Part shown: positions 5,896 through 26,325 of the stretch, one piece after another
How positions within the stretch are numbered: the stretch's first letter is position 1
Layout: every line of letters starts with the position of its first letter
NCBI GenBank assembly: GCA_029210695.1
Contig: JARGFH010000037.1
Location: forward strand, 1-37,447
Source: Acidimicrobiia bacterium
Lineage (GTDB): Bacteria > Actinomycetota > Acidimicrobiia > Spongiisociales > JAHEDJ01
Length of the DNA stretch: 37,447 nucleotides
Direction of reading: 5' to 3'
Notes under the pieces: generated by a model
Told to the model about the DNA's origin: nothing
Databases searched by the model: none
The model's input: the letters and a program-made list of their open reading frames with translations, nothing else
Made by a program: the position numbers and the translations under genes

Positions 5896-7469
5896 TGGCC
5901 GGCGAGTCGGCGGTGTTGGCAGGTCAGGCCTCAACGGGCGACTTCGACCGGGTCCTGGTCGTCGACCTGGGGGCTCAGTATGCCCAGCTGATCGCCAGAC
6001 GGGTTAGAGAGGCTCACGTCCTTTCGGAAATCGTCCCCCGCGACATCACGGTCGAGGAGATCAAAGCCAGAAACCCGGCCGGCATCATCCTCTCGGGCGG
6101 ACCGGCCTCGGTCTATGCCGACGACGCCTATGAGATCGATACTGCGATCTTCGGAGCCGGGATTCCTGTGCTCGGGATTTGCTACGGCCATCAGTTGCTG
6201 GCTCATTCACTCGGCGGCACGGTTGAGCAGACCGGAACAGCTGAATACGGGAAGACCGAGCTCGAGGTATCCGGTGACTCGGCGCTCTTCTCCAATTTGC
6301 CTGTGCGACAGGATGTTTGGATGAGCCACGGAGACGCAGTCGTGGCCGCTCCAGAGGGTTTCGCCGTCACGGCCTCGACGGCCGGATCGCCTGTGGCGGC
6401 GATGGAGGACCGGCAGCGGGGCCTGTACGGCGTACAGTTCCATCCGGAGGTCGTCCACACGCCCAGGGGAACGGAACTCCTCCAACGGTTCCTGTATGAG
6501 GCATGCGGGGCGCGACCAACGTGGACCCGCCACTCCATCATCGAGCAATCGGTCGATGCCATCCGCGCCCAGGTCGGGGGTGAGAACGTGATCTGCGGGC
6601 TCTCCGGTGGCGTAGATTCCTCGGTGGCGGCGGCGCTGGTTCAAAAAGCGGTGGGGAGCCAGCTGACCTGCATCTTCGTCGATCACGGCCTGTTGCGGGC
6701 AGGCGAGGCTGAGCAGGTTGAGGCAACCTTCCGCGACGCTTTTCACGTCAACCTCATACACGTCAAGGCCGAGGATCGCTTCCTCGAGGCGCTCGCTGGT
6801 GTCACGGACCCCGAGGCGAAACGCATGATCATCGGCGAGACCTTCATCCGGGTGTTCGAGGACGTTGCGGACGATCTCACCGACACGCGCTTTCTCGTTC
6901 AGGGAACGCTCTACCCGGACATCATCGAGTCCGGCACCAAGGACGCCGCCAAGATCAAGAGCCATCACAACGTCGGCGGCCTGCCCGATGACATGCAGTT
7001 CGAACTCGTCGAACCATTGCGCGACCTCTTCAAGGATGAGGTGCGGGCGGTCGGCGAAGAACTCGGCTTACCCCCGGAGATCGTCTGGCGTCAGCCGTTT
7101 CCAGGTCCGGGTCTTGCGATTCGCATCATCGGTGACGTCACCCGTGAGCGCCTCGATATTCTGCGGGCGGCCGATTCGATTGTCCTCGAAGAGGTTCGGA
7201 AAGCGGGCCTCTACAACGAGTTGTGGCAGTCCTTTGGAGTGCTCCCGGCAATCAAGACGGTCGGGGTTCAGGGGGACGGCCGTACTTACGCTCATCCACT
7301 CATCATCAGGGCGGTCACGAGTGACGATGCCATGACGGCAGATTGGGCCAGGTTGCCGTACGAGGTGCTCGAAGCGATGTCCTCCCGGATCATCAACGAG
7401 GTCCCGGAGATCAACCGGGTGGCCTACGACATCTCATCGAAGCCCCCTGCGACAATCGAGTGGGAGTGA
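5895..7469 (+). CDS. guaA: GMP synthase (glutamine-hydrolysing)
   Basis: [38 protein letters not shown] overlap with guaB3. Confidence 0.98.
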
Positions 7470-7470
7470 A

Positions 7471-7569
7471 GAGGTTGTAGGTTTTGGGTTCTAGGTTCTG
7501 CGGTCGAAGCGGGCAGATCTGTGCTTGAGCGGTCGCCCATAGAACGCAAAACTCATAACCTAGAACCTC
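7471..7569. repeat. Inverted pair of heptamer-repeat tracts forming a long imperfect hairpin after guaA
   Basis: 7471-7500 (GAGGTTGTAGGTTTTGGGTTCTAGGTTCTG) is an imperfect reverse complement of 7540-7569. Confidence 0.75.
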
Positions 7570-7602
7570 AGGTTGTCAGACGCACGATCCCGCTCAATAT
7601 GC

Positions 7603-7631
7603 CTCAAGGGGGTCATTTATGCGGCCGATAC
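7603..7631 (+). promoter_or_regulatory. Sigma28 (FliA/WhiG)-type promoter upstream of the cheA-like gene
   Basis: CTCAA-N16-GCCGATAC, 29 nt before the GTG. Confidence 0.75.
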
Positions 7632-7660
7632 GGTTGAGAATACGGATTCAGAGGTAGCGC

Positions 7661-11921: not shown

Positions 11922-14900
11922 ATGGATTCAGCACGTCCGATCACCGACTCAGCACTGTTCGACGGCCTCAATCCTGCACAGCGCGAGGGTGTGGCGGCTA
12001 CCGACGGCCCCGTCCTCGTGGTGGCGGGGGCCGGATCGGGCAAGACCAGGGTGCTCACTTATCGAATCGCCCACCTGATCCGTGACCTCGGCGTGTCTCC
12101 GCACGCGATCCTGGCTATCACGTTCACCAACAAAGCTGCCGACGAAATGAAACAACGGGTAGCCAGCCTCGTCGGGGGCGTTGCCGGGTCGATGTGGGTG
12201 TCGACGTTTCACAGTGCCTGCGTGCGCATTCTGCGACGTGAAGCCCACCGCCTGGGCTACAAGTCCGCCTTCTCGATCTACGACGCCGCCGATTCGCTGC
12301 GCTTGATCACGATGTGTGTGTCGGATCTCGACCTCGATCCGAAGCGGTTTCCGCCCAGGAGTATTCGGGCGGCGATCTCGAACGCCAAGAACGAGATGAT
12401 CGACTTCGAGACCTACCGCAGCCAGGATTCGGGCTTCTACCACGAGCAAGTGGCAGACGTCTACCGCCTCTATCAGCAACGCCTCCTCGAGGCATCGGCG
12501 ATGGACTTCGACGATCTCCTGATGATCACCGTCGAGTTACTCGGGGCATTTCCCGACGTGCTCGAGCAGTACCAGCGCCGGTTCCAGTATGTCCTGGTCG
12601 ACGAGTACCAGGACACCAACCACGCCCAGTACATGCTGGTCAAGCTGCTGACGGATTCGCATCACAACCTCTGTGTGGTGGGTGATCAGGACCAGTGTCT
12701 TCCTCCCGGTACTTCAATCAAGACCACCTCCGGCCACAAGCCGATTGAGGAGGTCAATGTGGGTGACGAGGTAGTTGGGGTGGCCGGCGACGGCAATCTA
12801 CACCCCGGCCGCGTATCGCACGTTCAGCCCGGGACCTACTCGGGGCCCGTTTACCGCATCGACGCCGGGGACTCAACGCTGGTTGGAACACCTCATCACC
12901 TGGTACCGGCCCGACTGGACCTGCCGCAGGACTCCCATGTCGTCTATCTCATGTATCGAGGCGATCGCGGCTTCCGGCTCGGTCTCACGAAAGCTTTCCG
13001 GTCGAACTCTCGAGGCCTGGCAGACCTAGGAGTGACCGTCCGCAGCAATCAGGAGCACGCGGACAAGGTGTGGATTCTGAAGGTCTGCCCGTCAAGGGCC
13101 GAGGCCGCATACTGGGAATCGCGATTGTCTGCTGAGTACGGAATCTTGACCGCCCGTTTCCACGGCGTTGGTCGGAATCTCGATATGGATGAACCATGGT
13201 TGAAGCGTCTCTATGACGAGGTGGACACCGTCAGCGCCGCCAAGTTCCTCATGGAAGACTTCAACTTGCACGCCGAGTTTCCTCACTACCGGCCGCAGAA
13301 CGGGCAGAGGCGCCAGAGTGTCAATTTGACGATGTTTTCAGATCGGCGAACGGGCGTTGGGTACCACCGCGTCCAGTGGTCATCGAACCGGTCCGATATC
13401 GCCGATCGTTTGCGTGAGGCGGGGTTCAATGTGAGGCCGGGCAAGTTCCCCGGTACATTTCGCGTCGAGACTTCGCGCAAGAGCTATTCAAAGGCGCTCG
13501 AACTGGCGAAGGGGATGACGCTGGCTGCTGATCTCGAGATTCAAAGGCGAGCCTCAATAGGAGGGGACATGTACTCCTATACGCCGCTGGCTCACCTTCG
13601 AGCGGGGATGAGGGTTCTCGTTGAGGCCGATGGGCGTTTCGTCGAGCGAGCCGTGGAGCAAGTCGAGGTTGAGGAGTACTCCGGCCCGGTCTATGACCTG
13701 CAGGTTGACCCGGTTCATCATTACGTGGCGAACGGAGTTCTGGTTCACAACTCGATCTACAAGTTCCGAGGCGCCGATATCCGCAATATTCTCGAATTTG
13801 AGAAGGACTATCCGGATGCCCGGATAGTGGTGCTCGACCGCAACTACCGGTCGACCGAGATAATCCTCGAAGCCGCCAACGCGGTGATCGACAACAACCT
13901 GCACCGCAAGCCGAAACGGTTGTGGACCGACCTGGGCCGGGGAGAGCTGATCACCCGCTACGAGGCCCAGGACGAACACGACGAGGCCGCCTTCGTCGCC
14001 GATCAGATCGAACTGCTCGACGATCAGGGTTATCACCGCCGCGACATCGCCATCTTCTACCGCACGAACGCGCAGAGCCGGGTCCTCGAGGAGGTGTTCG
14101 TGCGGTACGGCATCCCCTACAACGTCGTCGGGGGAGTGAAGTTCTACGAGCGGCGTGAGGTTCGCGATGCGCTTGCCTACTTGCGGCTACTGGCCAACCG
14201 CACCGACGAGGTGGCGGCCAAGCGCGTGATCAACGTCCCGAAGCGGGGTATCGGACAATCGACGATTGCCCACATCGATCGGTTTACCCAGGATGGACGG
14301 ATCCCGTTCTACGACGGACTCCTTCGAATAGACGACATCGGGATGGTGGCGGCGCGTTCCGCGATCCGCGTGAAGGAGTTTGTCGGTCTAATTGATCGCC
14401 TCGAGGAGGCGGCGGCCGACGGTCCCCGGGCGGCAATCGACGCGGTGCTGGCGGAAACCGGCTACGTGGCCGAACTGGAAGCGGAGCGGTCGGTCGAGGC
14501 GCTCGGCCGGGTGGAGAATCTCCGGGAGCTTGCATCGGTGGCCGAGGAGTTCGAGGAGTCGATGGACGGCTCGATCATCGACGACGGACCGTGGGCGACG
14601 CTGGGTGGAATGCGGAAGCTCGAGTTGTTCCTCGAACAGGTGAGCCTGGTGACGGACATCGACGAACTCGACGACCAGGCCGAAGCGGTGACGCTGATGA
14701 CGCTGCATACGGCCAAGGGCCTCGAGTATCCGGTCATCTTCATCGTCGGCATGGAAGACGGGGTGTTTCCTCATTCACGTTCGCTCGGTGATCCCGAAGA
14801 ACTCGAAGAGGAGCGGCGTCTTTGCTACGTCGGCGTGACGAGAGCGGAGGAGAAGCTCTACGTGACGCACGCCTGGCAGCGGATGTTGTTCGGCAGTTCT

Positions 14901-15185
14901 AGTTTCAACGCCCCGAGCAGATTCTTGGGAGAGATCCCAGAAGATCTGGTGACCATGGCGCCGAAGCGAACCCGTCGGAGCCAGGAGATCGCTTCGCCTT
15001 CACCGGGCGCAACCGTTTCCGCCGACGAGATCGGCGTCGGCGATCGGGTGCTGCACGGCAAGTGGGGCGCCGGCGTGGTGGAGGAGATCACCGGCACCGG
15101 CGACCGGGCAGAAGCCTGGGTGGTCTTCGACGAGAGCGGCCGCAAACGGTTGCTGCTGGCATGGGCGCCTCTTTCCAAGGCATAG
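11922..15185 (+). CDS. pcrA: PcrA/UvrD SF1 DNA helicase precursor containing an intein (about 735 aa after splicing)
   Basis: AGAGSGKT, TFTNKAA, DEYQD, GDQDQ|SIY split by the intein, NYRST, HTAKGLE, EERRLCYVGVTRA. Confidence 0.96.
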   Translation: MDSARPITDSALFDGLNPAQREGVAATDGPVLVVAGAGSGKTRVLTYRIAHLIRDLGVSPHAILAITFTNKAADEMKQRVASLVGGVAGSMWVSTFHSACVRILRREAHRLGYKSAFSIYDAADSLRLITMCVSDLDLDPKRFPPRSIRAAISNAKNEMIDFETYRSQDSGFYHEQVADVYRLYQQRLLEASAMDFDDLLMITVELLGAFPDVLEQYQRRFQYVLVDEYQDTNHAQYMLVKLLTDSHHNLCVVGDQDQCLPPGTSIKTTSGHKPIEEVNVGDEVVGVAGDGNLHPGRVSHVQPGTYSGPVYRIDAGDSTLVGTPHHLVPARLDLPQDSHVVYLMYRGDRGFRLGLTKAFRSNSRGLADLGVTVRSNQEHADKVWILKVCPSRAEAAYWESRLSAEYGILTARFHGVGRNLDMDEPWLKRLYDEVDTVSAAKFLMEDFNLHAEFPHYRPQNGQRRQSVNLTMFSDRRTGVGYHRVQWSSNRSDIADRLREAGFNVRPGKFPGTFRVETSRKSYSKALELAKGMTLAADLEIQRRASIGGDMYSYTPLAHLRAGMRVLVEADGRFVERAVEQVEVEEYSGPVYDLQVDPVHHYVANGVLVHNSIYKFRGADIRNILEFEKDYPDARIVVLDRNYRSTEIILEAANAVIDNNLHRKPKRLWTDLGRGELITRYEAQDEHDEAAFVADQIELLDDQGYHRRDIAIFYRTNAQSRVLEEVFVRYGIPYNVVGGVKFYERREVRDALAYLRLLANRTDEVAAKRVINVPKRGIGQSTIAHIDRFTQDGRIPFYDGLLRIDDIGMVAARSAIRVKEFVGLIDRLEEAAADGPRAAIDAVLAETGYVAELEAERSVEALGRVENLRELASVAEEFEESMDGSIIDDGPWATLGGMRKLELFLEQVSLVTDIDELDDQAEAVTLMTLHTAKGLEYPVIFIVGMEDGVFPHSRSLGDPEELEEERRLCYVGVTRAEEKLYVTHAWQRMLFGSSSFNAPSRFLGEIPEDLVTMAPKRTRRSQEIASPSPGATVSADEIGVGDRVLHGKWGAGVVEEITGTGDRAEAWVVFDESGRKRLLLAWAPLSKA
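12696..13751 (+). mobile_element. Intein (352 aa) in PcrA helicase motif III
   Basis: Starts CLPPGT, block B TPHH, block F VYDLQV, ends HN followed by Ser. Removal restores GDQDQSIYKFRGA. Confidence 0.95.
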
Positions 15186-15198
15186 CCTTGGAAAGAGG
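15168..15198. terminator. Perfect 14-bp inverted repeat spanning the pcrA stop codon
   Basis: CCTCTTTCCAAGGC-ATA-GCCTTGGAAAGAGG. Confidence 0.6.
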
Positions 15199-15280
15199 TT
15201 CGAGAAGGTCGGCCCCCCCGAAGGGGGGAAGGGACCCGTTGCGCAGCAGCGGGTAGGGGGGCAACCAGCAAGATCCGTCA

Positions 15281-15428
15281 AACCGCCCCCCTCCCCTCGA
15301 GGACTCGGGACTCCCCCCACTTCGTGGTGGGAGAATGGGATTGGGTTGTTGGGGTGGGTGAAGTCACTTTCCGCGTTTCTCCCCTGCGGAGCGGGGGAGA
15401 TGCTGAGTCTTCGAATCGGAGGGGGCGG
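15281..15428. repeat. REP/REPIN-like element, copy 1 (two related palindromic units in inverted orientation)
   Basis: 34-nt (15302-15335) and 30-nt (15386-15415) blocks identical to 25062-25095 and 25153-25182. Confidence 0.85.
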
Positions 15429-15799
15429 ACAGGTCGACTGGATTCGGATCTATCCGCATCTACCGATCTCACCCGTCGATCCCAGGTTGTGGAGGCGACA
15501 TACGGTCTGTCGGCATCGGACGTCAACGTCAGATCTCCAGCACTCACGCCAGTCCAACGATTGAGCCCCCGATTCTCAAGACAACCGTACGCGGTGAAAC
15601 CGCCCAGAGATGGGGCGGGTCTCCCTTGAACCCGCCCCTTGACCTGCGCCGCTCTGCGTTGCGGGTTCGAGACCGGTGTAGGCGAGAGCATGAAGTGGAG
15701 AGCCTGCGGGCTCGACGAGTTGCCCGGTCGGAGAAAGGCAGGGGCACGCGGAGAAGGGGCGGGCTCCCCCTGGAACCCGCCCCTCGTGTCTGGCGCCGC

Positions 15800-15997
15800 C
15801 TAGTGGGTCAGCGGATGTCTCCAGCGGCGGTGGCCGGCTCGTTGGCGGTGCCGTTTGATGAGCCGGTGGAGCCTCGCTTCCAACCGTGGACCGAATCGGG
15901 TCAGTTTGAGTGGACTCCCTCTATCGCGGCGAAGATTCTCAGCCGCTTGCAGTCGGACCTCTTGTATTGCTCTTGCTCCCCGGTAATCGGGCAACAT
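15800..15997 (-). CDS. Small Arg-rich hypothetical protein (65 aa)
   Basis: AAGGGGGG RBS-like tract before the ATG. The stop is followed by the same hairpin family that follows the cassette secreted-protein genes. Confidence 0.45.
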   Translation of the reverse strand: MLPDYRGARAIQEVRLQAAENLRRDRGSPLKLTRFGPRLEARLHRLIKRHRQRAGHRRWRHPLTH

Positions 15998-16225
15998 ACG
16001 GACCCCCCTTCATCTTTCCCTTCTCTACTCCTATGTCGCAGTGTGCAGGATGCGCCTAACAAGCCGCTCACTAAACAAACGCTCGAGGCCGTCATGTTTA
16101 TGACAGGCTTCCATGGGTTCTCCCGAGGTGTTCCCGGGCGCCGGAGCCTGGAAGGGCGCCTAAATCTCCGGCCTTCCGGGTGTCGTTCGTTGTTTCGTCA
16201 TCTCGGCCCGATCTCTTCTTCCCCC

Positions 16226-16258
16226 TTAACACGTCTGAGCGATGTCCGACGGAGTACC
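16226..16258 (-). promoter_or_regulatory. Putative ECF promoter, copy 4 (no sigma gene downstream)
   Basis: GGTACTCC-N16-ACGTGTTAA, same register as the three sigma-gene promoters. Confidence 0.65.
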
Positions 16259-16322
16259 TGATTCCGAGGATTCGTTAGAAGCCTTTCCGCGCGCCGGGAG
16301 AACTTTCGCAAAACGGGATTGG

Positions 16323-16354
16323 GAGTGGGCGGGTTCCCCCAAACCCGCCCACTC
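16323..16354 (-). terminator. GC-rich hairpin after cassette 3
   Basis: GAGTGGGCGGGTT-CCCCCA-AACCCGCCCACTC. Related hairpins at 15612, 15755 and 19246. Confidence 0.6.
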
Positions 16355-16371
16355 TTGTCGCGCTGCTCTGT

Positions 16372-16956
16372 CTAGGGCGTGGTCGCCTGCGGTGGTGACA
16401 GCGTGATTTCGACCGTGGTGCCCTTCTTGGCGCGGAAGTCCACTCGCAGGTGGAGTGGCTTGCCATTCGAGTCGTCTCGCATATCGAAATCACCATCTTG
16501 CGGATAGCACCAATGACCGGCATCCCAGGTCCAGTAGGTCTGGTTTGAGTACCAGGAGAACGGGTCGGTCATCTCGCTGTAAGCCAGGTCGAAGGACGCT
16601 GTGTAGGAAGGACCCGTGTGGCCCTCCCAGTCCTGCTCGAGCACGCAGATGTCTCCGGGCGAATCATCAAGGACGAACACAATCACCCTGGAGATCGGGC
16701 CTTCGACAGGTTCCCTCGAGATCGGGTCGACAGCTTTGACGGTGACGGTGCCAACCCCTGTATCGCTCTCCGCCGGTGTCCAGAGGCATTCGAATCTGAT
16801 GGTGCCCGTGCCACTGAGAGAGATCTCACCGTCCGCGGTGATCGCGCATTCCCGCACTGCGGCCGGTTCTTGAGGCGGTTTCCCCTTCCCTGCGGCTGGT
16901 GCCGCCAGGGCGACGAGCACCGCTAGGGCAGTGACCAGGATCAGACTCTTCCTCAT
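16372..16956 (-). CDS. Secreted hypothetical protein, cassette 3 (paralog of 19297-20031)
   Basis: Signal peptide, AAAGGAG RBS, shared FECLWTP, SPGDICVL, HWCYPQD, NGKPLHL blocks. Confidence 0.85.
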   Translation of the reverse strand: MRKSLILVTALAVLVALAAPAAGKGKPPQEPAAVRECAITADGEISLSGTGTIRFECLWTPAESDTGVGTVTVKAVDPISREPVEGPISRVIVFVLDDSPGDICVLEQDWEGHTGPSYTASFDLAYSEMTDPFSWYSNQTYWTWDAGHWCYPQDGDFDMRDDSNGKPLHLRVDFRAKKGTTVEITLSPPQATTP

Positions 16957-17105
16957 GACGCTCCTTTCGCTCCCCTAACCAGATACCGCACAGCGGTTTG
17001 GCGCTGCTTGGGCCCGGGGCGGATAGGAGATCTAGTCCTACCCCCGTCGGGAGCCTCCTCAAGTCTCCACCTCTTGCCGATAGCTGCTTCATGCCTTCCC
17101 CCTCC

Positions 17106-18506
17106 CTAGTCGGTCCACTCGCCGATCCAGACGGCCGGCGCCCCGAATCCGACCCGGCCCACGGCGACGATGCGACCTTCCACCAGAGCAACGTCGCGGA
17201 TGGCCCCAGATTCATCCTCGAGATACCTCATACCGAAGACGTCCTGGTTCTTCTCTTTCGTCCACGTCTGTCCGCCGTCGCTAGAGGTGCTCACGAAGCC
17301 CTGGTTCTTCTCGCCGACGGCCACGGCCAGGTCGCCGTCGACGGCAATCCCGGATAGGTACGAGCCGATGTTGGTATCGACCTGATAGATCTTCTCCGCC
17401 TCGACGCTGACGTCGACGGCTCGCCATACTCCAAGTTGTCCCACCGCTAGGTAGGCATAGCCCACGTTGGCGACGTCGAGCAACGGTGCCGGGCGCCACC
17501 AGCCGTCGCCTTGCTCGACCGGCATGTCGACCCACTCGATTCCGTCGATCGAGCGATACATCCCCTCCCGCCCACTGGGGTCGAGTCCTGCTGCCACGAA
17601 CTGAGTACCGTCGAAGATGATCGAGAAGAGCGTGCCGCCCGGCGACGGTGATCGCTCCCAGGTGAGCCCGTCCGCGGAGCGCCACACGGCGTCACCGACC
17701 GCCACGAACTGGTCGGGCGAGGCGGCCACCGCCCACATCCGTAGTACGACGTCGTCGCCGCCGAACACGGCCCCGTCATGAGGTACTCGTGTCCAAATCG
17801 CACCGTCGCCAGAGGACCAGACCACGGCGACCGGAGAGGCATCCAACCAGGCCGAGCTGTTCCAGCGGTCGAGCCCTGCGAAGTACATGTCCCCCGCCGC
17901 TCCTGTGCCTTCGAATCCCACCGCCACCGTTCTCTCACCTAGCGAGGCGAATCCAACGACCTCTGCGAAAGTTCCGTCTGACGAGTCGCCAGACTCCTCA
18001 CCTGCCGGAGTGATCGTCGCCCGTTCCCAGGCGGACCCGTCGTCGGACCTCCAGATCGCCGCGTCCCGTCCGTCGAAACCGCCGGCTAAGAAACCATCCT
18101 CAGCGGCAGCGATGGTGTCGAGCGCTGCCTCGGCGGATGTAGCGGCCAGTTCCATGCGGGTCCATGTGATCGATGGAACCGGCTCGGCCGGCACGGCGGC
18201 GGCCGTGGTCGGGGTCGGCGGTGTGGTGTTCTCCGGCGGGGAAGTGACTGAGGTGACCGGAACCGTCGTCGGTGCAACTTCCTCGACGAATGGTGCTTCG
18301 TCGTCCCCGAGGGGGGCCAGCAGTGCTGTTAGACCGATAACGAGCGCCAGCGCGGCAGCCGCGCCCAGTGAAATGGCGAGGTTTCGTTGAGTCGGTGACG
18401 CCTGGCGCCGCCGGGTGACCCGTTCGTCCAGGTCGGGACCTACGATCGCATCCCGATAGCTGTGGAGGCTTTCGGCAGCGTCGCTCAGCATCTGATCGAT
18501 GGTCAT
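17106..18506 (-). CDS. Single-pass membrane protein with extracellular Asp-box (BNR) beta-propeller, putative anti-sigma/sensor, cassette 3
   Basis: Short N-tail, TM helix, Pro/Thr linker, repeated WxSxDGxxW. ATGA-coupled to the sigma gene. Confidence 0.8.
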   Translation of the reverse strand: MTIDQMLSDAAESLHSYRDAIVGPDLDERVTRRRQASPTQRNLAISLGAAAALALVIGLTALLAPLGDDEAPFVEEVAPTTVPVTSVTSPPENTTPPTPTTAAAVPAEPVPSITWTRMELAATSAEAALDTIAAAEDGFLAGGFDGRDAAIWRSDDGSAWERATITPAGEESGDSSDGTFAEVVGFASLGERTVAVGFEGTGAAGDMYFAGLDRWNSSAWLDASPVAVVWSSGDGAIWTRVPHDGAVFGGDDVVLRMWAVAASPDQFVAVGDAVWRSADGLTWERSPSPGGTLFSIIFDGTQFVAAGLDPSGREGMYRSIDGIEWVDMPVEQGDGWWRPAPLLDVANVGYAYLAVGQLGVWRAVDVSVEAEKIYQVDTNIGSYLSGIAVDGDLAVAVGEKNQGFVSTSSDGGQTWTKEKNQDVFGMRYLEDESGAIRDVALVEGRIVAVGRVGFGAPAVWIGEWTD

Positions 18507-19060
18507 TCCGTCACCTCATCATTGACTCGAAGGTACGTGGCCAGCGTCTGCTTGCCTCGCTGAAGATGGGTCTTGGCCGTGAATGGTGAACACTGCAGGA
18601 TCTCCCCGATATCTGACAGGCTGTGACCCTCGAGGTAGGTGAGGGCGATGACCTGCGCCTGGCGTTTCGGTAGGCGGCGTACGGCGGCCCAGATCTCCGC
18701 CGCTTCGGCTGCCACCTCTGGTGGTGTGTCGCCGGTCGGCCGGCGCCACAGGCGGGGGAGTGCTCTGCGTTCGACCTGCGTCCGGCGGTACCGCGACACC
18801 GCTTTGTTGGCAACGACCCGGCGGATCCAGGCTCCGGGTGCCGGGTATGTTCCGACTTCCGCCCAGTTCTGGCGGGCGGCAATGAAAGAGTCCTGGGCGA
18901 GATCCTCACCAATCCACCGGTCACCGGTGAGGGCATAGGCGAGTTCCGCAATCCTCGGGTATTCCCGAGCGTAGAAGGCAGCGAACGATGTTTCGCTCTG
19001 GTATTCGCCCCTCGGCGGAGAATGGGTTTCTGCCACTGCCTTCCCCAATCCGGCTCTCAC
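18503..19060 (-). CDS. ECF RNA polymerase sigma factor, cassette 3
   Basis: GEDLAQDSF, AWIRRVVAN, LPKRQAQVIALTYLEG, TAKTHLQRG. Confidence 0.93.
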   Translation of the reverse strand: MRAGLGKAVAETHSPPRGEYQSETSFAAFYAREYPRIAELAYALTGDRWIGEDLAQDSFIAARQNWAEVGTYPAPGAWIRRVVANKAVSRYRRTQVERRALPRLWRRPTGDTPPEVAAEAAEIWAAVRRLPKRQAQVIALTYLEGHSLSDIGEILQCSPFTAKTHLQRGKQTLATYLRVNDEVTE

Positions 19061-19063
19061 CCA

Positions 19064-19096
19064 TTAATACGCTTTGAGAGACCGAGTTGGAGTACA
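19064..19096 (-). promoter_or_regulatory. Putative autoregulatory ECF promoter, copy 3
   Basis: TGTACTCC-N16-GCGTATTAA, 3 nt before the GTG start. Confidence 0.78.
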
Positions 19097-19114
19097 AGGC
19101 CGCGGTCCTTTTCC

Positions 19115-19237
19115 CGTTCTTGCGTGGAGTGCTCTCGCAGACCGGGACGTTCCCACCACGATAAGGATTGCGCCGTTTCTCTCCTTTGCTCGTGCGTGGG
19201 TCGCTCCCGTGTATCGGGAGGAGCTAACGCAAGAACG
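19115..19237. repeat. REP-like palindromic repeats (TTCTTGCGTG...ACGCAAGAA family) between cassettes
   Basis: Two units here, a half unit at about 22342-22366 and a degenerate unit at about 16270-16316. Confidence 0.6.
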
Positions 19238-19245
19238 GATTGGAG

Positions 19246-19277
19246 GGTGGGCAGGGTCCCCCTTTCCCTGCCCCACC
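19246..19277 (-). terminator. GC-rich hairpin after cassette 2
   Basis: GGTGGGCAGGG-TCCCCCTTT-CCCTGCCCCACC. Confidence 0.55.
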
Positions 19278-19296
19278 TAGTGGTCCGGTGCTCTGT

Positions 19297-20031
19297 CTAG
19301 GGGCTAGTTGGTGGCGACATGACCTGCGGCGGGTCCAGGACAATGTCGACCATCGTTCCCTTCTTGATCCGGAAGTTCACCTGCAGGTGCAAAGGCTTCC
19401 CGTTCGGGTCGGCCCGCATTCCCTTGATCGGATCCTGCGGATAGCACCAGTGTTGGCCGCCGAGGCTCCAGTAGGTCTCGTTCTCGTAAGGCGCGTAATC
19501 CGGGTAGATGTCGTCGGGATCCCAGTCGGCATCCCTCGGCAGGTATCCGTAGGCGAGGTCGAAGGTTGCCGTGTAGCTCGCACCGGTCTGGTCGGCCCAC
19601 TCCTGTTTCAGCACACAGATGTCGCCGGGCGACGCATCACGAACGAACACCACCAGGTTCGAGATGGCGCCGCCAAGGGGCGTGACCGTCACCGTGCCAA
19701 TCTCAGTCTCGCTCGGCGCCGGCGTCCAGAGGCATTCGAACCTGGTCGCGCCTGAACCGTTGATGCCAGATAGCACGTCTGTTGTGCAGGCTTGTACTTC
19801 GGAAGGCTGGGGCGCCGTTGTCGTCGTGCTGGAGCAACTGGGGTGATCAGGTCTGTAGTCGGGCGATTCTGGATTGCAGAAATCCGGGGGAGCGGCTGCC
19901 GCGACGGCTGCGAGCGTCAGCACCAACGCTAATACCAGCACCATTCCCGTGGTGAATCGCCATCTGCTTCCTATATCTGAGACCCTGACGGGCTTTGCCT
20001 TGTGCGGTTCTTTGGCTGATGCGTGTTTCAT
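19297..20031 (-). CDS. Secreted hypothetical protein, cassette 2
   Basis: GGAGA RBS, hydrophobic signal ending AAAA-PP, six Cys, paralog of 16372-16956. Confidence 0.85.
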   Translation of the reverse strand: MKHASAKEPHKAKPVRVSDIGSRWRFTTGMVLVLALVLTLAAVAAAAPPDFCNPESPDYRPDHPSCSSTTTTAPQPSEVQACTTDVLSGINGSGATRFECLWTPAPSETEIGTVTVTPLGGAISNLVVFVRDASPGDICVLKQEWADQTGASYTATFDLAYGYLPRDADWDPDDIYPDYAPYENETYWSLGGQHWCYPQDPIKGMRADPNGKPLHLQVNFRIKKGTMVDIVLDPPQVMSPPTSP

Positions 20032-20040
20032 GAATTCTCC

Positions 20041-21663
20041 CTAGTTCGATGTGTTTCCGATCCAGACGGCGGCATCGCTTCCGCTGTATCCCACAGCCAG
20101 CAGGCGGCCCCCGCCGGCATCGATAACGTCGGTCATGGCTGTTTCTACGAGTAACTGGCCAACCACCAGGTCATGTTCGAAGTGCCACTCCGAGTTGATG
20201 GAGGACACGAACGCGGTGTCTCGATCCCAACCAACGGCCACAACCCCGCTCTCGGTCTCGAGGAGCGCCTTCACCGGGTCGTGTTTGAGGTTGGCAGTGT
20301 TGAAGAACACCTTTGGCTGGGCTCGAGCAAAGGGCGCTGTGTCGTCCCAAACCCGGGTCCAAGCCAGACCGTTGTCCGAAGTCCAGAGGGCCATTCGGGT
20401 TGGTGAAGTACCTGCGGCGATGAGGCCCGTCTCGGTGGTCGTCACCGTCCAGATGAAGTACGGCTCGGACTCGGCGAGATCGTCGCTTTGCTCGATCAGG
20501 CCGCCAAACACCGATGGGTCACTGGGGAGTCGTGTCCATTCGTATCCGTCCTCAGACACCCATACGGCTCCCCGCATGATTCCTTCTCCGGTTTCAGCTT
20601 GGTTGAGGTCGGTCCCGACAGCTATGAATCGTTCGCCCGTGTATGTGACATCGTGCATCCATTTGCTTGATGGGCCCCCGAACACATCTTCGTCGTGAGC
20701 GATCCGTTGCCACTCGATCCCGTCCGTTGAGACCCATACCGCCGCATCGCTGTGAGCCGAGCCAACCGCCACGATCAACCCGTTGCCCACGGTGACGGCT
20801 TCCATCGCCTGGTCACCGGCATCAGGGGATGAACCGTCGCTTGGCCCGCTGAAGACTCCACTCGGATCGGCCACCCTATTCCAGGTCAATCCATCGGCAG
20901 ATGTCCAGACCGCGGCATCCAGGTCGTCGCGTCCATACTCCTGATCGAAGCCGTAGATGGCGGAGAACGCATCCGGTCGGAATTCCTGTTGCGATCTACG
21001 AAAACCAAAATATGCCTGGTCGACGATTCCAACGGCGACGAGACCGGGTCCGGCCTCCACAACGTCGATGATGTCCTGGCTGCCGGGCCCACCGAATACC
21101 GCTTCGTCATGTGGAACCCTGGACCAGTCTGTACCGTCTTCTGAGATCCACACTGCTGCATCCCAACCATCCTCCGGGGTTGGTTCGCATGGCCCGGCGC
21201 AGTCGGTGCCGACGGCGACGAACCGGGAATCGAAAGCAATGACCGACTCGATGTGTTGTGTACCCGTGGTTCCCAAGTCGCCATTTGTGTCGGATATCCG
21301 CTCCCAGTCGACCGTGGCCCAGCTGATGGCCGGTTCCGCCGTCGCGATTACAGCGGTGGTGACAGTTTCTACTTCGGGCTCTGCTGGGACTGACTGTTCG
21401 GGCGATGGGGAAGGAGCGGTCGTCGGAGCAGGCGCCGGCGTCGTCTCGTCCACGAATGGAGCCTCTTCTCCGCCGAGAGGTGCGAGGAGCGCGGCTAGTC
21501 CGATGATGATCACCAGCGCGGCCGCCGCTGCCATGGCAAGGGCCCAACCTCTGCGCCTCGGAGCCAACCGGCGACGATCAGGTTCGAGGACAGGGACCCG
21601 GAGAGTTGATCCGAAATCATGCATCTCGTCGACGGCCGGACGAAGTCGTTGATCGAGCGTCAT
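20041..21663 (-). CDS. Single-pass Asp-box propeller protein, putative anti-sigma/sensor, cassette 2
   Basis: MTLDQRL start ATGA-coupled to the sigma gene, TM helix, repeated AAVWxSxDGxxW-R(V/I)xxDxxVFGG. Confidence 0.82.
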   Translation of the reverse strand: MTLDQRLRPAVDEMHDFGSTLRVPVLEPDRRRLAPRRRGWALAMAAAAALVIIIGLAALLAPLGGEEAPFVDETTPAPAPTTAPSPSPEQSVPAEPEVETVTTAVIATAEPAISWATVDWERISDTNGDLGTTGTQHIESVIAFDSRFVAVGTDCAGPCEPTPEDGWDAAVWISEDGTDWSRVPHDEAVFGGPGSQDIIDVVEAGPGLVAVGIVDQAYFGFRRSQQEFRPDAFSAIYGFDQEYGRDDLDAAVWTSADGLTWNRVADPSGVFSGPSDGSSPDAGDQAMEAVTVGNGLIVAVGSAHSDAAVWVSTDGIEWQRIAHDEDVFGGPSSKWMHDVTYTGERFIAVGTDLNQAETGEGIMRGAVWVSEDGYEWTRLPSDPSVFGGLIEQSDDLAESEPYFIWTVTTTETGLIAAGTSPTRMALWTSDNGLAWTRVWDDTAPFARAQPKVFFNTANLKHDPVKALLETESGVVAVGWDRDTAFVSSINSEWHFEHDLVVGQLLVETAMTDVIDAGGGRLLAVGYSGSDAAVWIGNTSN

Positions 21664-22190
21664 GACGTCCCCCCTTCTGTTCCCAGGCACTCGGCAAGAG
21701 TTGCCCTACCTCGCTGCAGGTGGGTCTTCACCGTGAAGGGTGAGCATTCAAGTATTTCGCCGATCTGCTGGATTGATAGGTCTTCTAGATAGGTGAGGGC
21801 GATGACCTGTGCCTGGCGCTTCGGGAGGCGGCGGACCGCCGCCCATACCTCGACAGACTCCGCCGAAAGTTGCGGGGGAGGTGCCGGTGCCTTGTGTTGC
21901 AGTCGGAGAAGAGCGCGGCTTTCCGCTCCGGTTCGGCGGAGTCTCGACACCGACTTGTTGGCGACCACCCTGCGCACCCAGGCGGCGGGAGAGTCGTACC
22001 CCGAGATCTTCTGCCAGTCACGCTGAGCGGCAATGAACGCATCCTGGGCAAGATCCTCGGCAGCCCACCGGTCGCCGGTCAAGGCACAGGCAAACTCGAC
22101 GACGGGCCGGTACTCCCGTTCATAGAACTCCGCGAACGGCGCCGCTTCGAGCGTTCGTATCTCCTGTGAGGCTTCGGCCTCGCGTCCCAT
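21660..22190 (-). CDS. ECF RNA polymerase sigma factor, cassette 2
   Basis: AEDLAQDAF, AWVRRVVAN, LPKRQAQV, TVKTHLQRG. GGAGG 6 nt before ATG 22190 (GTG 22196 is an alternative). Confidence 0.93.
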   Translation of the reverse strand: MGREAEASQEIRTLEAAPFAEFYEREYRPVVEFACALTGDRWAAEDLAQDAFIAAQRDWQKISGYDSPAAWVRRVVANKSVSRLRRTGAESRALLRLQHKAPAPPPQLSAESVEVWAAVRRLPKRQAQVIALTYLEDLSIQQIGEILECSPFTVKTHLQRGRATLAECLGTEGGTS

Positions 22191-22205
22191 CTGCACCCTC
22201 CACCC

Positions 22206-22238
22206 TTAACTCGCACCAGAGGCCGATGCTGGAGTACA
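22206..22238 (-). promoter_or_regulatory. Putative autoregulatory ECF promoter, copy 2
   Basis: TGTACTCC-N16-GCGAGTTAA. Confidence 0.78.
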
Positions 22239-22385
22239 AGGTTGTTCCATGGTGGACGGAGCGGCCTACCGGGCACAGGGTCCAACGGCCCCAATCGCGC
22301 CCATTCCCCATAACCACCTCCGGGGTCACGCCCGTCGCGCACTCCGGGAGGAACTCACGCAAGAACAAGCAAGGGTGAGGTGGGG

Positions 22386-22985
22386 TCAGCCCGCCGGAGT
22401 GATTGTGGCGGTGAGAGTTCCCTCGGAGCTTCCAACCGGAATCCAGTCGTTGACGATCTCCTTGCCCTCCTTGGTGAAGAGAGTCACCGAGAAGGTTCCG
22501 GTTCCATAGGACTTCAGCGAGAACATCTCGAGCACCTCTTGAACAGGTCGCCCGTTCTTGGGATTGACCCCGAACTGCCAGTAGTAGTCGAACAGGAGGT
22601 TCACCAACGTGACCTCTCCGTCTCCGTCGACCTCGAGGATGAGCGTCCCGCCGAACGAGCCGTCGGGCACGTACGGGCCGATTCCGTGGCAGCCGCTGAA
22701 CGCAGCGGCCGATGCACCCCATCCGGCGTCGTAGTCGCGCTCCCATGGGACAGCGAGGTTCACTCCGACGACTACTTCGGGCGATAGGCCAGCTGACAAA
22801 GTGCCTGGAACCGTACCGGTCATGGGGATGGTGCCCTCCGTGGCGCACGTGGTGTTGAGAACTCCGCTCAGTTCGACCTCGAACCGATCCGGATTGCCCA
22901 GCGGTTTGCCCCCCTTGGCGGCCATCGCCGGCGTCGCGGCCAGCAGCATCATCAGCACCAGTGCGATCATCGCTATGCGTTTCAT
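22386..22985 (-). CDS. Secreted hypothetical protein, cassette 1
   Basis: Signal peptide MKRIAMIALVLMMLLAATPAMA-AKGGKP, AGGAG RBS overlapping the upstream stop. Confidence 0.85.
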   Translation of the reverse strand: MKRIAMIALVLMMLLAATPAMAAKGGKPLGNPDRFEVELSGVLNTTCATEGTIPMTGTVPGTLSAGLSPEVVVGVNLAVPWERDYDAGWGASAAAFSGCHGIGPYVPDGSFGGTLILEVDGDGEVTLVNLLFDYYWQFGVNPKNGRPVQEVLEMFSLKSYGTGTFSVTLFTKEGKEIVNDWIPVGSSEGTLTATITPAG

Positions 22986-22994
22986 ATCCGTCTC

Positions 22995-24410
22995 CTAGTA
23001 ATCCGTCGGGGTGCCGACCCATACCGCGGCGTCGCCGTTGCCCTCGAGGAGGCCTCGCTGGGCAAGGTTGTTGCCGAAACTGCCGCCGACGATTATGTGG
23101 TCTTCGAACTTCACGATTGAGAACGCTTCCGACTGGCGGGACTCCGATCTGGGGTTGCCGAACACGTCCTGATCCTCCCGTACCGTCCATGTGAACCCGC
23201 CGTCGGTCGATTCCCAGACGGTGGCGGCCGTTGCTAGGTATGCCTCTCGCGCACCTACGGCGACGATCGTGTCGTCGACGGCAATGATGTCGTGGACCTG
23301 GTCGGCTGCATACCCGTCGTTCTCTTCGTAGCCGCCCCTGAAGGTCCAGGTGAAGCCGTCCGTGGAGAACCAAACGAGTCGGCGGGATCCGGAACCCAGG
23401 GCGAAGTATCCATCTCCTGTCTCCGCCATGGCAGCGAACCTCCCCTGGAAGCTGGGTGCCGTCTCGACCCCGGCGGACTTCCAGTTCGTGCCGTCGGTCG
23501 AATACCAGGCGGCTTCTCGATACGCCCACTCATCATCGGGGCCGACGGCCCCGACTGCCAGGATGGCGGTTCCTGTGGCGATTGCATCGGAGACATACGA
23601 TCCCGGTACATTTGCCCGTGTCCACGAGCCTCCGTCGGGCGATGTCCAGATCGCCTCGCCAACGGCGAGGAAACCGGTAGGCGTGGCGATGATCCGTGCA
23701 TCGGACCGTAGGGGGCCCGACCCCAGGCGGAACGCGTCGCCGTCGTCGGGGACCCTGGCCCACGTCGATCCATAGTCGTCGCTGTACCAGAACGCCATGA
23801 CCTTCACGGCCGGGTCGATTTTGACATGCGATTCCCCAGGACGGTGCAGGACGTCGATTCCGATCGCGACCAGGCGCCCATTTCCTTCGGCGATGTCGAG
23901 GAGCCATCGCCGGGAGTCCTCGCCGTACGGGCTCTGTTCAGAACCGAAGGCGTCCGTTGCGTCATTGACGCGATGCCAGTCGAGACCGTCCTCCGACGCC
24001 CACACCGCAGGTGAGTATCGATCTTCACCAACCGCGATCAGTCCCGAGGACACGCCGCGAATCGAATAGATCTCCTGGTTCCCTTCACCGCCGAGGTCGG
24101 GGTCGGCGACACGAGTCCATGCGTATGGGGATCCGGCCGGGCTAGCCGGGGTTGTGCCGGGCGAAGTCGAGCCAGTCGGAGCGACGATGCCCGGCTCGTC
24201 GGCCACCGGAGCGTCGGGGCCGAACGGTGCAATAAGGGCGATGGCGATCAGGGATACGAGGCAGACGGCCGCGGTGGCGGCCGCGACGGCGAGTCTGTTC
24301 AGCCTCCGAGGAAGTCTCTCGAGGCCCGGTTTGGGGACGGCAAAGGCCGATCGGACGTGACGGTTGAGGTCCGAGGCGGCGGATTGCAGACGTTGCTCGA
24401 GCTTGGTCAT
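22995..24410 (-). CDS. Single-pass Asp-box propeller protein, putative anti-sigma/sensor, cassette 1
   Basis: MTKLEQRL start ATGA-coupled to the sigma gene with GAGGAGG RBS, TM helix, WxSxDGxxW repeats, ends DAAVWVG. Confidence 0.82.
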   Translation of the reverse strand: MTKLEQRLQSAASDLNRHVRSAFAVPKPGLERLPRRLNRLAVAAATAAVCLVSLIAIALIAPFGPDAPVADEPGIVAPTGSTSPGTTPASPAGSPYAWTRVADPDLGGEGNQEIYSIRGVSSGLIAVGEDRYSPAVWASEDGLDWHRVNDATDAFGSEQSPYGEDSRRWLLDIAEGNGRLVAIGIDVLHRPGESHVKIDPAVKVMAFWYSDDYGSTWARVPDDGDAFRLGSGPLRSDARIIATPTGFLAVGEAIWTSPDGGSWTRANVPGSYVSDAIATGTAILAVGAVGPDDEWAYREAAWYSTDGTNWKSAGVETAPSFQGRFAAMAETGDGYFALGSGSRRLVWFSTDGFTWTFRGGYEENDGYAADQVHDIIAVDDTIVAVGAREAYLATAATVWESTDGGFTWTVREDQDVFGNPRSESRQSEAFSIVKFEDHIIVGGSFGNNLAQRGLLEGNGDAAVWVGTPTDY

Positions 24411-24952
24411 GCTTCCTCCTCGACGAGTTGCAGCTTCTGAGCGAGCGATTGTTTGGCTCTCTGGAGATGGGTCTTGGCGGTAGTGCCTCGGCAGCCGAGT
24501 ATTTCGGCGACCTCGGGAATCGTGTACCCCTCGAGATAAGTCAGCGCAACGACCTGGGCTTGCCGCCTGGGAAGTGACCGAACGGCCTCCCACAGTTCGA
24601 CTGTCTCGGCACTCAGTGCATTGCCGCGCTCACCGCGAGGCTCGGCGGCGAGACGGATCACCGCGTTCGTTTCAGAGTGGCGGCGCCGGATCCGTGAAAT
24701 CGATCGGTTGGTGACCACCCGCCGAAGCCAGGCATGCGGGGCGTCGTACTGTGCAATGCGATCCCAGCGTTTCTGTGCGGTGATGAAGGCTTCCTGGGTG
24801 ATGTCCTCGGCAGCAGCTCGGTCCCCGGTGATCGCGAACGCCAGTGCAACCGCCGGGTGATACTGCGAGCGATAGAACTCACCGAACGATTCGACCTCAG
24901 CCGATGCCCTCACTGTTATCCCCACATCGACGCCTTCGAAGGATGTCATCAC
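24407..24952 (-). CDS. ECF RNA polymerase sigma factor, cassette 1
   Basis: AEDITQEAF, AWLRRVVTN, LPRRQAQV, TAKTHLQRA. Confidence 0.93.
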   Translation of the reverse strand: MMTSFEGVDVGITVRASAEVESFGEFYRSQYHPAVALAFAITGDRAAAEDITQEAFITAQKRWDRIAQYDAPHAWLRRVVTNRSISRIRRRHSETNAVIRLAAEPRGERGNALSAETVELWEAVRSLPRRQAQVVALTYLEGYTIPEVAEILGCRGTTAKTHLQRAKQSLAQKLQLVEEEA

Positions 24953-24955
24953 CAG

Positions 24956-24988
24956 TTAACACGCCCGAACGCCCTGAAGAGGAGGACA
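24956..24988 (-). promoter_or_regulatory. Putative autoregulatory ECF promoter, copy 1
   Basis: TGTCCTCC-N16-GCGTGTTAA, 3 nt before the GTG start. Confidence 0.75.
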
Positions 24989-25038
24989 GCGTCCCGCTGC
25001 GTGCAGCACGGAAGTTGGCGGTCCCGCATCACACCGGC

Positions 25039-25192
25039 AAACCTGCCCCCCTCCCCGAGAAGACTCGGGACTCCCCCCACTTCGTGGTGGGAGAACGGGG
25101 TATACGACGTGGTCTCGTATCGAACGAGGGTTGGCTTTTGCGTTTCTCCCTCGCGGAGCGGGGGAGATGCTGAGTCTTCGAAGCAGAGGGGA
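25039..25192. repeat. REP/REPIN-like element, copy 2 (direct repeat of 15281-15428)
   Basis: Identical 34-nt and 30-nt blocks with a different internal spacer. Confidence 0.85.
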
Positions 25193-25224
25193 CCCCGGCG
25201 ACGGTCCGCCTGGTGGTAGTCGCG

Positions 25225-26325
25225 CTAGCTGCTTGCCTGCCCGGCTATACCCGCCAGCAACTCCCGGTACGACACGGCGAACTTCTCGACACCTTCGTCT
25301 TCGAGAACCTGGACCACGTCGTCGTAGTCGACACCGGCTACCGCCAGATGGTCGAGGGTGGCCCGGGCGGCGGTGATCTCCTCTGCTCCGAACGGCGTTG
25401 GGTCGGGATCGCCGTGGTCGCGATAGGCGTCGATTGTGGCCAGCGGCATCGTGTTCACAGAGTCGCCGACGATGAGCGGCTCAACATAGAGCAGGTCGTC
25501 GTAGTCGGGGTTCTTGGTGCTGGTGCTGGCCCACAGGGGGCGCTGCAGCTGGGCTCCGGCTGCGGCGAGCGCCTCCCAGCGCTCACCGGCAAACGTATCC
25601 AGAAACGCACCATATGCGGCTTGAGCGTTGGCCACGGCAGTCTTCCCGCGTAGTGCCAGAGCGGCGTTCGTCCCCAGGGCCGTAAGGCGGTTGTCCACCT
25701 CGCTGTCGAATCTCGACACGAAGAACGACGCCACCGAGGCAACCGGCCCCGGGTCGCCGCCGGACGCGAGCTGGCGCTCAATGCCGGTCAGGTAGGCATC
25801 CATCACCGCGAGGTAGCGATCCAGGGAGAAGATCAGGGTTACATTGACCGAGATGCCCTCAGAGATCAGCTGCTCTATGGCGGGCAGTCCGGCTTTCGTG
25901 GCCGGAACTTTGATCAGCAGGTTCTGCCGATCGACCCTCTGCCACCAGGCGCGGGCGTCTGCAATGGTGCCTTCGGTGTCGTGGGCGAGTTCGGGGGAGA
26001 CCTCGACGGAGACGTGCCCGTCTTGCTTGCCGCCCTTCGCCCATATGGGTAGGAGAACATCGCAGGCATCCTGGATATCGCGCTTCACCAACTCCGCGTA
26101 TATGGCCTCTATGCCGGCTCCGCCGGCGGCGAGCTGCGAGACGGCACCGTCGTAATCCGAAGATCCGGTGATGGCGTTGGCGAAAATCGTCGGGTTCGAC
26201 GTGACGCCGCTGATCCCGTCTTCGTCGATCAGTCGCCTGAGCTCGCCATTGTCGAGCATCGACCTGGAAACCTGATCCGACCAGACGCTTTGTTTCAGTG
26301 CAGAGATGGCATGAAGAGTGGACAT
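25225..26325 (-). CDS. tal: Transaldolase
   Basis: GVTSNPTIF, VSVEVSP, IKVPAT, NVTLIFS, ASFFVSR, RPLWAST. Confidence 0.96.
   Translation of the reverse strand: MSTLHAISALKQSVWSDQVSRSMLDNGELRRLIDEDGISGVTSNPTIFANAITGSSDYDGAVSQLAAGGAGIEAIYAELVKRDIQDACDVLLPIWAKGGKQDGHVSVEVSPELAHDTEGTIADARAWWQRVDRQNLLIKVPATKAGLPAIEQLISEGISVNVTLIFSLDRYLAVMDAYLTGIERQLASGGDPGPVASVASFFVSRFDSEVDNRLTALGTNAALALRGKTAVANAQAAYGAFLDTFAGERWEALAAAGAQLQRPLWASTSTKNPDYDDLLYVEPLIVGDSVNTMPLATIDAYRDHGDPDPTPFGAEEITAARATLDHLAVAGVDYDDVVQVLEDEGVEKFAVSYRELLAGIAGQASS

Follow-up and report, generated by a model that had tools for sequence, protein, structure and literature searches.

A selected two-box motif as the probable autoregulatory promoter of three ECF39-like sigma/anti-sigma cassettes in an Acidimicrobiia bacterium

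The window examined in this study is a stretch of 37,447 nucleotides (contig JARGFH010000037.1 of assembly GCA_029210695.1, from an Acidimicrobiia bacterium). It contains an array of three minus-strand cassettes, in each of which a gene for an extracytoplasmic function (ECF) sigma factor is coupled by an ATGA overlap to a putative anti-sigma gene, followed by a gene for a protein with a hydrophobic N-terminus. Four copies of a two-box motif, here called p1 to p4, lie in the array (Table 1), and an earlier note, made from the DNA letters alone, had proposed this motif as the target promoter of the three sigmas. The genome to which the window belongs (G000) comprises 3,912,992 bases in 181 contigs and is 97.85% complete; related genomes are numbered G001 onwards, with contigs given as C and further loci as L.

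Sigma cassettes and promoter copies

The three sigmas, 178-185 amino acids long, match Pfam Sigma70_r2 and Sigma70_r4_2 as well as TIGR02937 over cut-off and are 49-64% identical to one another. With regions 2 and 4.2 only and a length in the range of about 170-200 amino acids, they are ECF (group 4) sigma factors. All three putative anti-sigmas consist of a short N-terminal domain, one hydrophobic segment (about residues 37-68) and Asp-box repeats. The outer domain of anti-sigma 3 was modeled as a beta-propeller (predicted local distance difference test, pLDDT, 79.8; predicted template modeling score, pTM, 0.85), the top Foldseek matches being kelch, GH74 and YCF48 propellers. A complex of sigma 2 with the first 50 residues of anti-sigma 2 was predicted with a score of 0.88 (best control 0.00), to which likeness to solved sigma/anti-sigma pairs may contribute; runs agreed in at least 76% of contacts and the pLDDT of the partner was at least 67. 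The mark set for this complex score is reached by 116 of 157 solved pairs and by 2 of 215 mismatched pairs.

All four two-box strings were found on the minus strand at exactly the coordinates reported earlier. The motif had been described as standing before all three sigma genes, which holds for p1-p3, while p4 precedes an open reading frame (ORF) of 65 codons and no sigma gene. The spacer is indeed fixed in all copies; its length, measured as in the wider family from the CC that ends the -35 box to the CG that opens the -10 box, is 17 nt and not 16, the shorter count having arisen because the base before CG was taken into the -10 box. TTAA is as rare as had been claimed, since the only four occurrences in the window are those in p1-p4 and the genome holds 282 TTAA compared to 2511 AATT (as a side observation, 282 is also below the 385 expected from trinucleotide counts, and CTAG occurs 2552 times). 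The genome scan that had been suggested, with the pattern GT[AC]CTCC-N17-CG[TA][GA]TTAA, returned four strict matches in the whole of G000, namely p1-p4, where 0.0019 would be expected from half-pattern counts of 1140 and 13, the pattern being a post hoc one.

Between the four copies, pairwise identity is 42/48 (88%) in the -35 box and again 42/48 in the -10 box, compared to 27-36% outside the boxes: 28/102 in the spacer, which agrees with the description of the spacers as unrelated, 73/240 in the 40 nt upstream and 65/180 in the 30 nt downstream. At 4-fold degenerate sites, sigmas 1 and 2 match at 11/49, sigmas 1 and 3 at 13/50, and sigmas 2 and 3 at 31/59, so that sigma 1 is near random (22-26% synonymous-site identity) in relation to both of the others. 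The boxes have thus been kept while synonymous sites between sigma 1 and the other two are near random, and they are under selection and neither merely inherited nor a trace of recent copying. G001 has an ortholog of cassette 1, 57% identical in amino acids, that keeps both p1 boxes at 8/8 with a spacer at 9/17, and the G004 ortholog of p3 has both boxes identical. The copies are not identical, however, and the differences between cassettes are kept in orthologs, so the idea of one motif for all copies does not hold in its simple form; the conserved single-base differences are C versus A at -34 (sigma 1) and A versus G at the flipped -10 base (sigma 3), and the specificity loop of sigma 3 has Pro where Asp stands otherwise.

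Table 1. Features of the cassette array, in window coordinates
Feature	Position	Strand	Remarks
Promoter copy p1	24956..24988	-	-35 box TGTCCTCC (24988-24981), 17-nt spacer, -10 box CGTGTTAA (24963-24956)
ECF sigma 1	24407..24952	-	GTG 24952 or ATG 24949; likely leaderless; G001 ortholog has ATG-ATG at both positions
Putative anti-sigma 1	22995..24410	-	short N-terminal domain, one hydrophobic segment, Asp-box repeats; ATGA overlap with sigma 1
Protein x1	22386..22985	-	hydrophobic N-terminus, likely secreted; no Pfam family
Promoter copy p2	22206..22238	-	TGTACTCC, 17-nt spacer, CGAGTTAA
ECF sigma 2	21660..22196	-	GTG 22196, or ATG 22190 behind GGAGG
Putative anti-sigma 2	20041..21663	-	N-terminal 50 residues predicted to bind sigma 2
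Protein x2	19297..20031	-	likely secreted; 51% identity to x3 over 176 residues
Promoter copy p3	19064..19096	-	TGTACTCC, 17-nt spacer, CGTATTAA
ECF sigma 3	18503..19060	-	GTG 19060, or in-frame GTG 19036 behind purine-rich leader
Putative anti-sigma 3	17106..18506	-	one hydrophobic segment and predicted extracellular beta-propeller
Protein x3	16372..16956	-	likely secreted; strong hairpin follows
Promoter copy p4	16226..16258	-	GGTACTCC, 17-nt spacer, CGTGTTAA; no sigma gene behind p4
65-codon ORF	15800..15997	-	about 230 nt behind p4; may be the one target outside the cassettes

The motif across the order and its possible readers

Homologs of the window sigmas were sought in G000 and 60 relatives of the same order, and 36 of these 61 genomes hold at least one (G021 being counted in this tally only). 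Upstream DNA was taken for all listed homolog matches save three (one cut, one partial, and that of G021); de-duplication and a coverage filter left 71 sigma loci, 70 of them with enough upstream DNA, including five from G000. A motif search over these 70 regions, seeded with a paralog outside the window (on C104), yielded GTAAACC-N16-CG(A/T)GT(A/T)A with a mean score of 16.5, compared to 9.2-9.8 in shuffled sets, and 66 of the 70 best sites fell within 130 nt of the conserved core although 330 nt were searched. A held-out set comprised 92 further loci, 86 with enough upstream DNA; four rows at intermediate identity were not counted, and the negative set was partly made up of 12 distant ECFs, the only matches of a scan of genome contigs with a single protein. 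The motif was in place at 9 of 14 held-out homologs with at least 44% identity and at 3 of 68 ECFs below 40%. The sigma family has what marks an autoregulatory ECF promoter, a bipartite motif with a fixed spacing of 16-18 nt upstream of homologous sigma genes. The window sigmas and four relatives from the genus form one clade (support 98/93 in one tree; 85, not starred, in another), five of whose seven members carry GT(A/C)CTCC-N17, and of 401 genomes of the class only two, G000 and G004, hold the strict window pattern. The window form GT(A/C)CTCC-N17-CG is a clade variant of the order-wide motif. Neither the GTAAACC motif nor any promoter motif of Acidimicrobiia ECF sigmas was found in the literature searched, though the datasets of Todor et al. 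or the ECF Hub may hold it.

Promoter bases were compared with sigma residues over 73 score-filtered sigma/promoter rows, in which the spacer was 16 nt in 57, 17 nt in 15 and 15 nt in one; 13 of the 15 spacers of 17 nt accompany Thr158 (sigma 2 numbering, as used throughout). Residues 154-164 are the protein columns that tell most about the -35 bases, and residues 78-84 are among those that tell most about the first three -10 bases. At residue 161, His goes with A at the -32-equivalent base in 38/38 rows, Gln with T in 6/7 and Glu or Asp with C in 4/4. K157, T158, Q161 and R162 of sigma 2 align to K170, T171, H174 and R175 of Bacillus subtilis SigW, which are reported to contact positions -31, -34, -32/-33 and -35 in the solved structure (PMC6713349), and the same residue position as 161 is described by Todor et al. 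as covarying with base -32 (PMC7776599). An independent-pairs test for His161 offered four pairs on well-supported branches, of which a mean of 1.6 changed in the same way, 0 in the opposite way and 2.4 showed no difference; for the other two traits a single pair was available, and the test is underpowered for His161 as well.

The sister sigma encoded on C104 has a KVHLHK helix and a GTAAACC-N16 promoter of its own. Above 21 bits, the family matrix identifies two perfect sites in G000 and 0 control matches: C104:7310 (-) at the C104 sigma itself, and C104:17018 (+) about 10 kb off, before a gene for a secreted protein. By eye, the repeats of this secreted protein resemble the outer part of the C104 sigma's own anti-sigma. 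The pair of C104-type sites is present in G000, G001, G002 and G004 (0 control matches), while G003 and G006, which are 77% and 56% complete, have one such site each. Six further loci (L005, L008, L014, L017, L021 and L023) show back-to-back twin GTAAACC-N16-CG sites, one directed towards the sigma and the second divergent. Judging by the C104 pair and these second sites, sigmas of this family have one or two targets close by.

The motif had been offered as a direct handle on the regulon, an expectation that was not borne out, as only four local sites and no distant targets rise above background. A matrix of the four window sites finds only p1-p4 in G000 at or above 21 bits (0 in the reversed genome), and five more at 17-21 bits compared to 13 in the control. 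Across five genomes of the genus, the window pattern with 0-1 mismatch has three matches, the orthologs of p1, p3 and p4, and with exactly two mismatches eight, compared to 10 in the control. The regulon thus apparently consists of about four promoters, all local, to which weak or degenerate targets, or targets in assembly gaps, may have to be added. A regulon of this size agrees with the local ECF regulators described by Todor et al., of which 47.8% are reported to have three or fewer promoters (PMC7776599).

The GTG codons noted 3 nt after TTAA in cassettes 1 and 3 are present. All three sigma ORFs have an in-frame stop in the TAA of TTAA, and by default an ORF caller will therefore take the first GTG. 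Over 66 sites of the family, 29 in-frame open ATG or GTG codons stand 3-5 nt behind the -10 box, compared to 8 in the two other frames together, and the first start lies at gap 3 or 4 in 21 of the 66, a pattern from which leaderless mRNA would seem to be common in this sigma family. In cassette 1, where a GTG at gap 3 is followed by an ATG at gap 6 (G001 has ATG-ATG), the mRNA is likely leaderless under either register. The same suggestion for cassette 3 is uncertain, since its GTG at gap 3 is accompanied by an in-frame GTG at gap 27 behind a purine-rich stretch. Cassette 2, with GTG at gap 9 and ATG at gap 15 behind GGAGG, is not leaderless as read here. The numbering published for Mycobacterium tuberculosis SigL puts +1 at the seventh base (PMC6372665), which is an A in all four copies and is the A of the cassette 1 ATG. 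By this numbering the GTG 3 nt behind TTAA would lie upstream of +1, but the argument is not decisive, since start codons in the family peak at gaps 3-5. A look-up of RNA runs for window 16000-25100 listed none, which weighs neither for nor against transcription from these sites.

Autoregulation and competing explanations

We consider it probable, at roughly 86%, that the selected motif represents the autoregulatory promoters of three ECF39-like sigma/anti-sigma cassettes, read by the adjacent ECF sigmas. The earlier proposal that these sigmas target the motif is supported, as far as sequence comparison can do so, by the order-wide motif, the covariation with region 4.2, and the sister sigma's own box and conserved second target. 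Copies p1-p3 would each drive the operon of their own sigma, its predicted membrane anti-sigma and a likely secreted protein, and p4 would likely drive a small local gene. Under the general model of ECF control, the propeller would sense a signal from outside and the sigma would be freed from its anti-sigma, the N-terminus of which is predicted to bind it; region 4.2 would then read the GT(A/C)CTCC box, and region 2 would melt the CG(A/T)(A/G)TTAA box. Transcription would start about 4-7 nt downstream, giving an mRNA that is leaderless or nearly so in cassette 1, and the anti-sigma made from the same transcript would hold the positive feedback in check. The three paralogs probably read one another's promoters in part and read the GTAAACC-N16 promoters of the sister sigma little.

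Several observations weigh against autoregulation by the adjacent sigmas or limit what it explains. Kin share both promoter and residue traits, and covariation corrected for kinship is not significant (p 0.5); the sigma that reads each site is not assignable from sequence, G000 having 31 Sigma70_r4_2 matches, 27 of them over cut-off. Five of the 14 close held-out homologs fell short of the motif threshold, and two clade members from G002, with the same helix, carry GTAGT(T/C)(C/G)-N16. In addition, a matrix of 53 family sites from genomes other than G000 scores the window copies at 18.1, 17.2, 15.5 and <15 bits, which is genome background (at 15 bits or more, 18 matches in G000 and 31 in the reversed genome); it fails to lift these copies because they are a variant form. 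Finally, a gap of 2 nt shows 10 out-of-frame and 0 in-frame start codons over the 66 sites, so the GTG-like stretch reflects in part a preference in sequence and does not serve as a start at every site.

The alternative that fares best concerns p4 only, which may be a promoter that has outlived a fourth, now lost cassette at the border of a duplicated unit, instead of the working promoter of the small ORF; we regard this as possible, although unlikely. Copy p4 stands 114 nt after x3, and the stretch running from x3 through a hairpin to p4 resembles that from x2 to p3. An ATG 24 nt past p4 opens only 13 codons in a frame not kept in G004, and the cassettes found at this locus vary within the genus. 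The 65-codon ORF itself is kept in G004 at 83% amino-acid identity with an in-frame 6-nt indel, and its paralog on G004:C59 has no window-type site upstream. Against a left-over promoter, G004 keeps the p4 boxes at 8/8 and 8/8, the spacer at 16/17 and the downstream stretch at 28/30, whereas 30% of the 4-fold sites differ in the upstream neighbor, the anti-sigma 3 gene. A search downstream of p4 for what might be left of a sigma 5' end detected nothing (best z 3.3 and 2.7, in 73 comparisons each, with different top matches). As a separate observation, G000 and G004 agree more closely in the 5' region of the small ORF (window 15998-16115, minus strand) than in the stretch preceding it; this region has a short inverted repeat and may carry a promoter or operator of its own. 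An Atlas search for the function of the small ORF and x3 gave unnamed clusters below 0.9 and otherwise no usable match.

It is improbable that another sigma of G000, such as the C104 or C158 paralog, drives p1-p4 with the three cassettes as its downstream targets. One promoter format is common to five close paralogs, and p2 and the C104 sigma's own site have identical -10 boxes, CGAGTTAA. The KVHLHK helix of C104 goes with GTAAACC-N16, however, and its two perfect sites differ from those of the window in both -35 box and spacer; the -35 variant instead follows the clade and helix of the adjacent sigma. Still less probable is an operator of a separate transcription factor or a housekeeping-sigma promoter. 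Operators do often overlap the expected promoter position, as this motif does. The motif is no palindrome, however; it keeps to one strand and has two boxes 16-17 nt apart, and where it changes, the DNA-reading helix of the sigma changes with it. A scan of 15600-25300 for the sigma-70 consensus found 0 sites, where 1.3 were expected. That all copies are non-functional relics of tandem duplication is the least credible explanation, for although the cassettes are paralogous and their sigmas fall in one clade (98/93; 85), boxes and spacing are kept while spacers and flanks are at chance identity, and the motif is order-wide.

Further features were observed in and around the array (window 15186-25224), which occupies a variable cassette slot in the genus: G004 (C84) has x1 directly before p3, without cassette 2, and G002 (L049, C26) has one different cassette beside uvrD. 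The adjoining UvrD/PcrA helicase gene (window 11922-15185, plus strand) likely contains an intein, given weak Pfam Intein_splicing and Hint_2 matches; the G002 ortholog (L049:3795-6002, 735 amino acids) lacks the insert. A repeat resembling repetitive extragenic palindromic (REP) elements, with many copies in the genome, lies on both flanks of the array (window about 15270-15430 and 25034-25191). On the minus strand, the intergenic stretches before p2 (22239-22385) and p3 (19097-19296) have a 22-nt block in common (20/22), those before p3 and p4 (16259-16371) have the same hairpin layout, and the stretch before p3 folds into a long inverted repeat. The sole Rfam match in 15100-25300 had an E-value of 0.71, i.e., no structured RNA was found there. 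Elsewhere, G000:C33 (about 6500-8700) and L088:98-2171 carry an anti-sigma-like propeller gene together with an x-like gene, and no close homolog of the sigmas was found next to either pair; the G000 copy looks frameshifted.

Known systems and implications

The best NCBIfam match of the window sigmas is TIGR02983 (SigE-fam_strep), the SigE family of Streptomyces, or ECF39. The scores of 130.1, 133.5 and 111.1 bits are below the cut-off of 141.55, so the sigmas resemble this family and are not assigned to it. In the account given by Casas-Pastor et al. (2021, PMC7826278), the anti-sigma-regulated subgroups of ECF39 have an anti-sigma with one transmembrane segment, in some cases with a propeller, and the motif CAACC / CGTC. 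The gene following each window sigma likewise encodes a protein with one hydrophobic segment, joined in cassette 3 to a predicted beta-propeller, and the upstream motif is also bipartite, with a -35 box ending in CC and a -10 box beginning with CG. The window boxes, (T/G)GT(A/C)CTCC and CG(A/T)(A/G)TTAA, nevertheless differ from CAACC / CGTC, and the canonical GCAACC-N16-CGTC was found only before distant homologs with a KSQTARG helix (L040, L042 and L047).

B. subtilis SigW, with its anti-sigma RsiW, is the nearest solved sequence (E 2.8e-20) and has the same recognition-helix layout; compared to SigW, the window -35 box lacks the typical AAC, carries CTC, and is followed by one spacer base more than the norm of the sigma family. 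The -10 region described for M. tuberculosis SigL, C-G-T-G-N-(C/A)-A-G (PMC6372665), is close to CGTGTTAA. Sequence kinship with SigW and SigL is about 30% or lower, however, and the sensor domain differs. In comparison with the local autoregulatory ECFs as described by Todor et al. (PMC7776599), the window stands apart in having three tandem paralogs with near-identical promoters. Self-regulating sigma/anti-sigma cassettes whose local regulon is very small are in themselves an ordinary and well-known design; it is the motif that seems to be new.

It is also conceivable, although we hold it to be doubtful, that the array captures a divergence of promoter specificity in progress, in which the clade swapped the His of the recognition helix for Gln, Glu or Arg and left GTAAACC-N16 for CTCC or CCCC boxes with a 17-nt spacer, the paralogs now differing by single conserved bases. 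If so, the array would be a divergence series, with graded cross-talk among three sensors and insulation from the sister sigma. The paralog pairs, which differ by single bases and residues, provide a compact test set for the divergence of promoters and spacers in duplicated sigmas, and are possible orthogonal switches. More broadly, the motif likely represents the promoter code of an ECF family that spans the order, is uncharacterised and belongs to uncultured bacteria, probably Acidimicrobiia.

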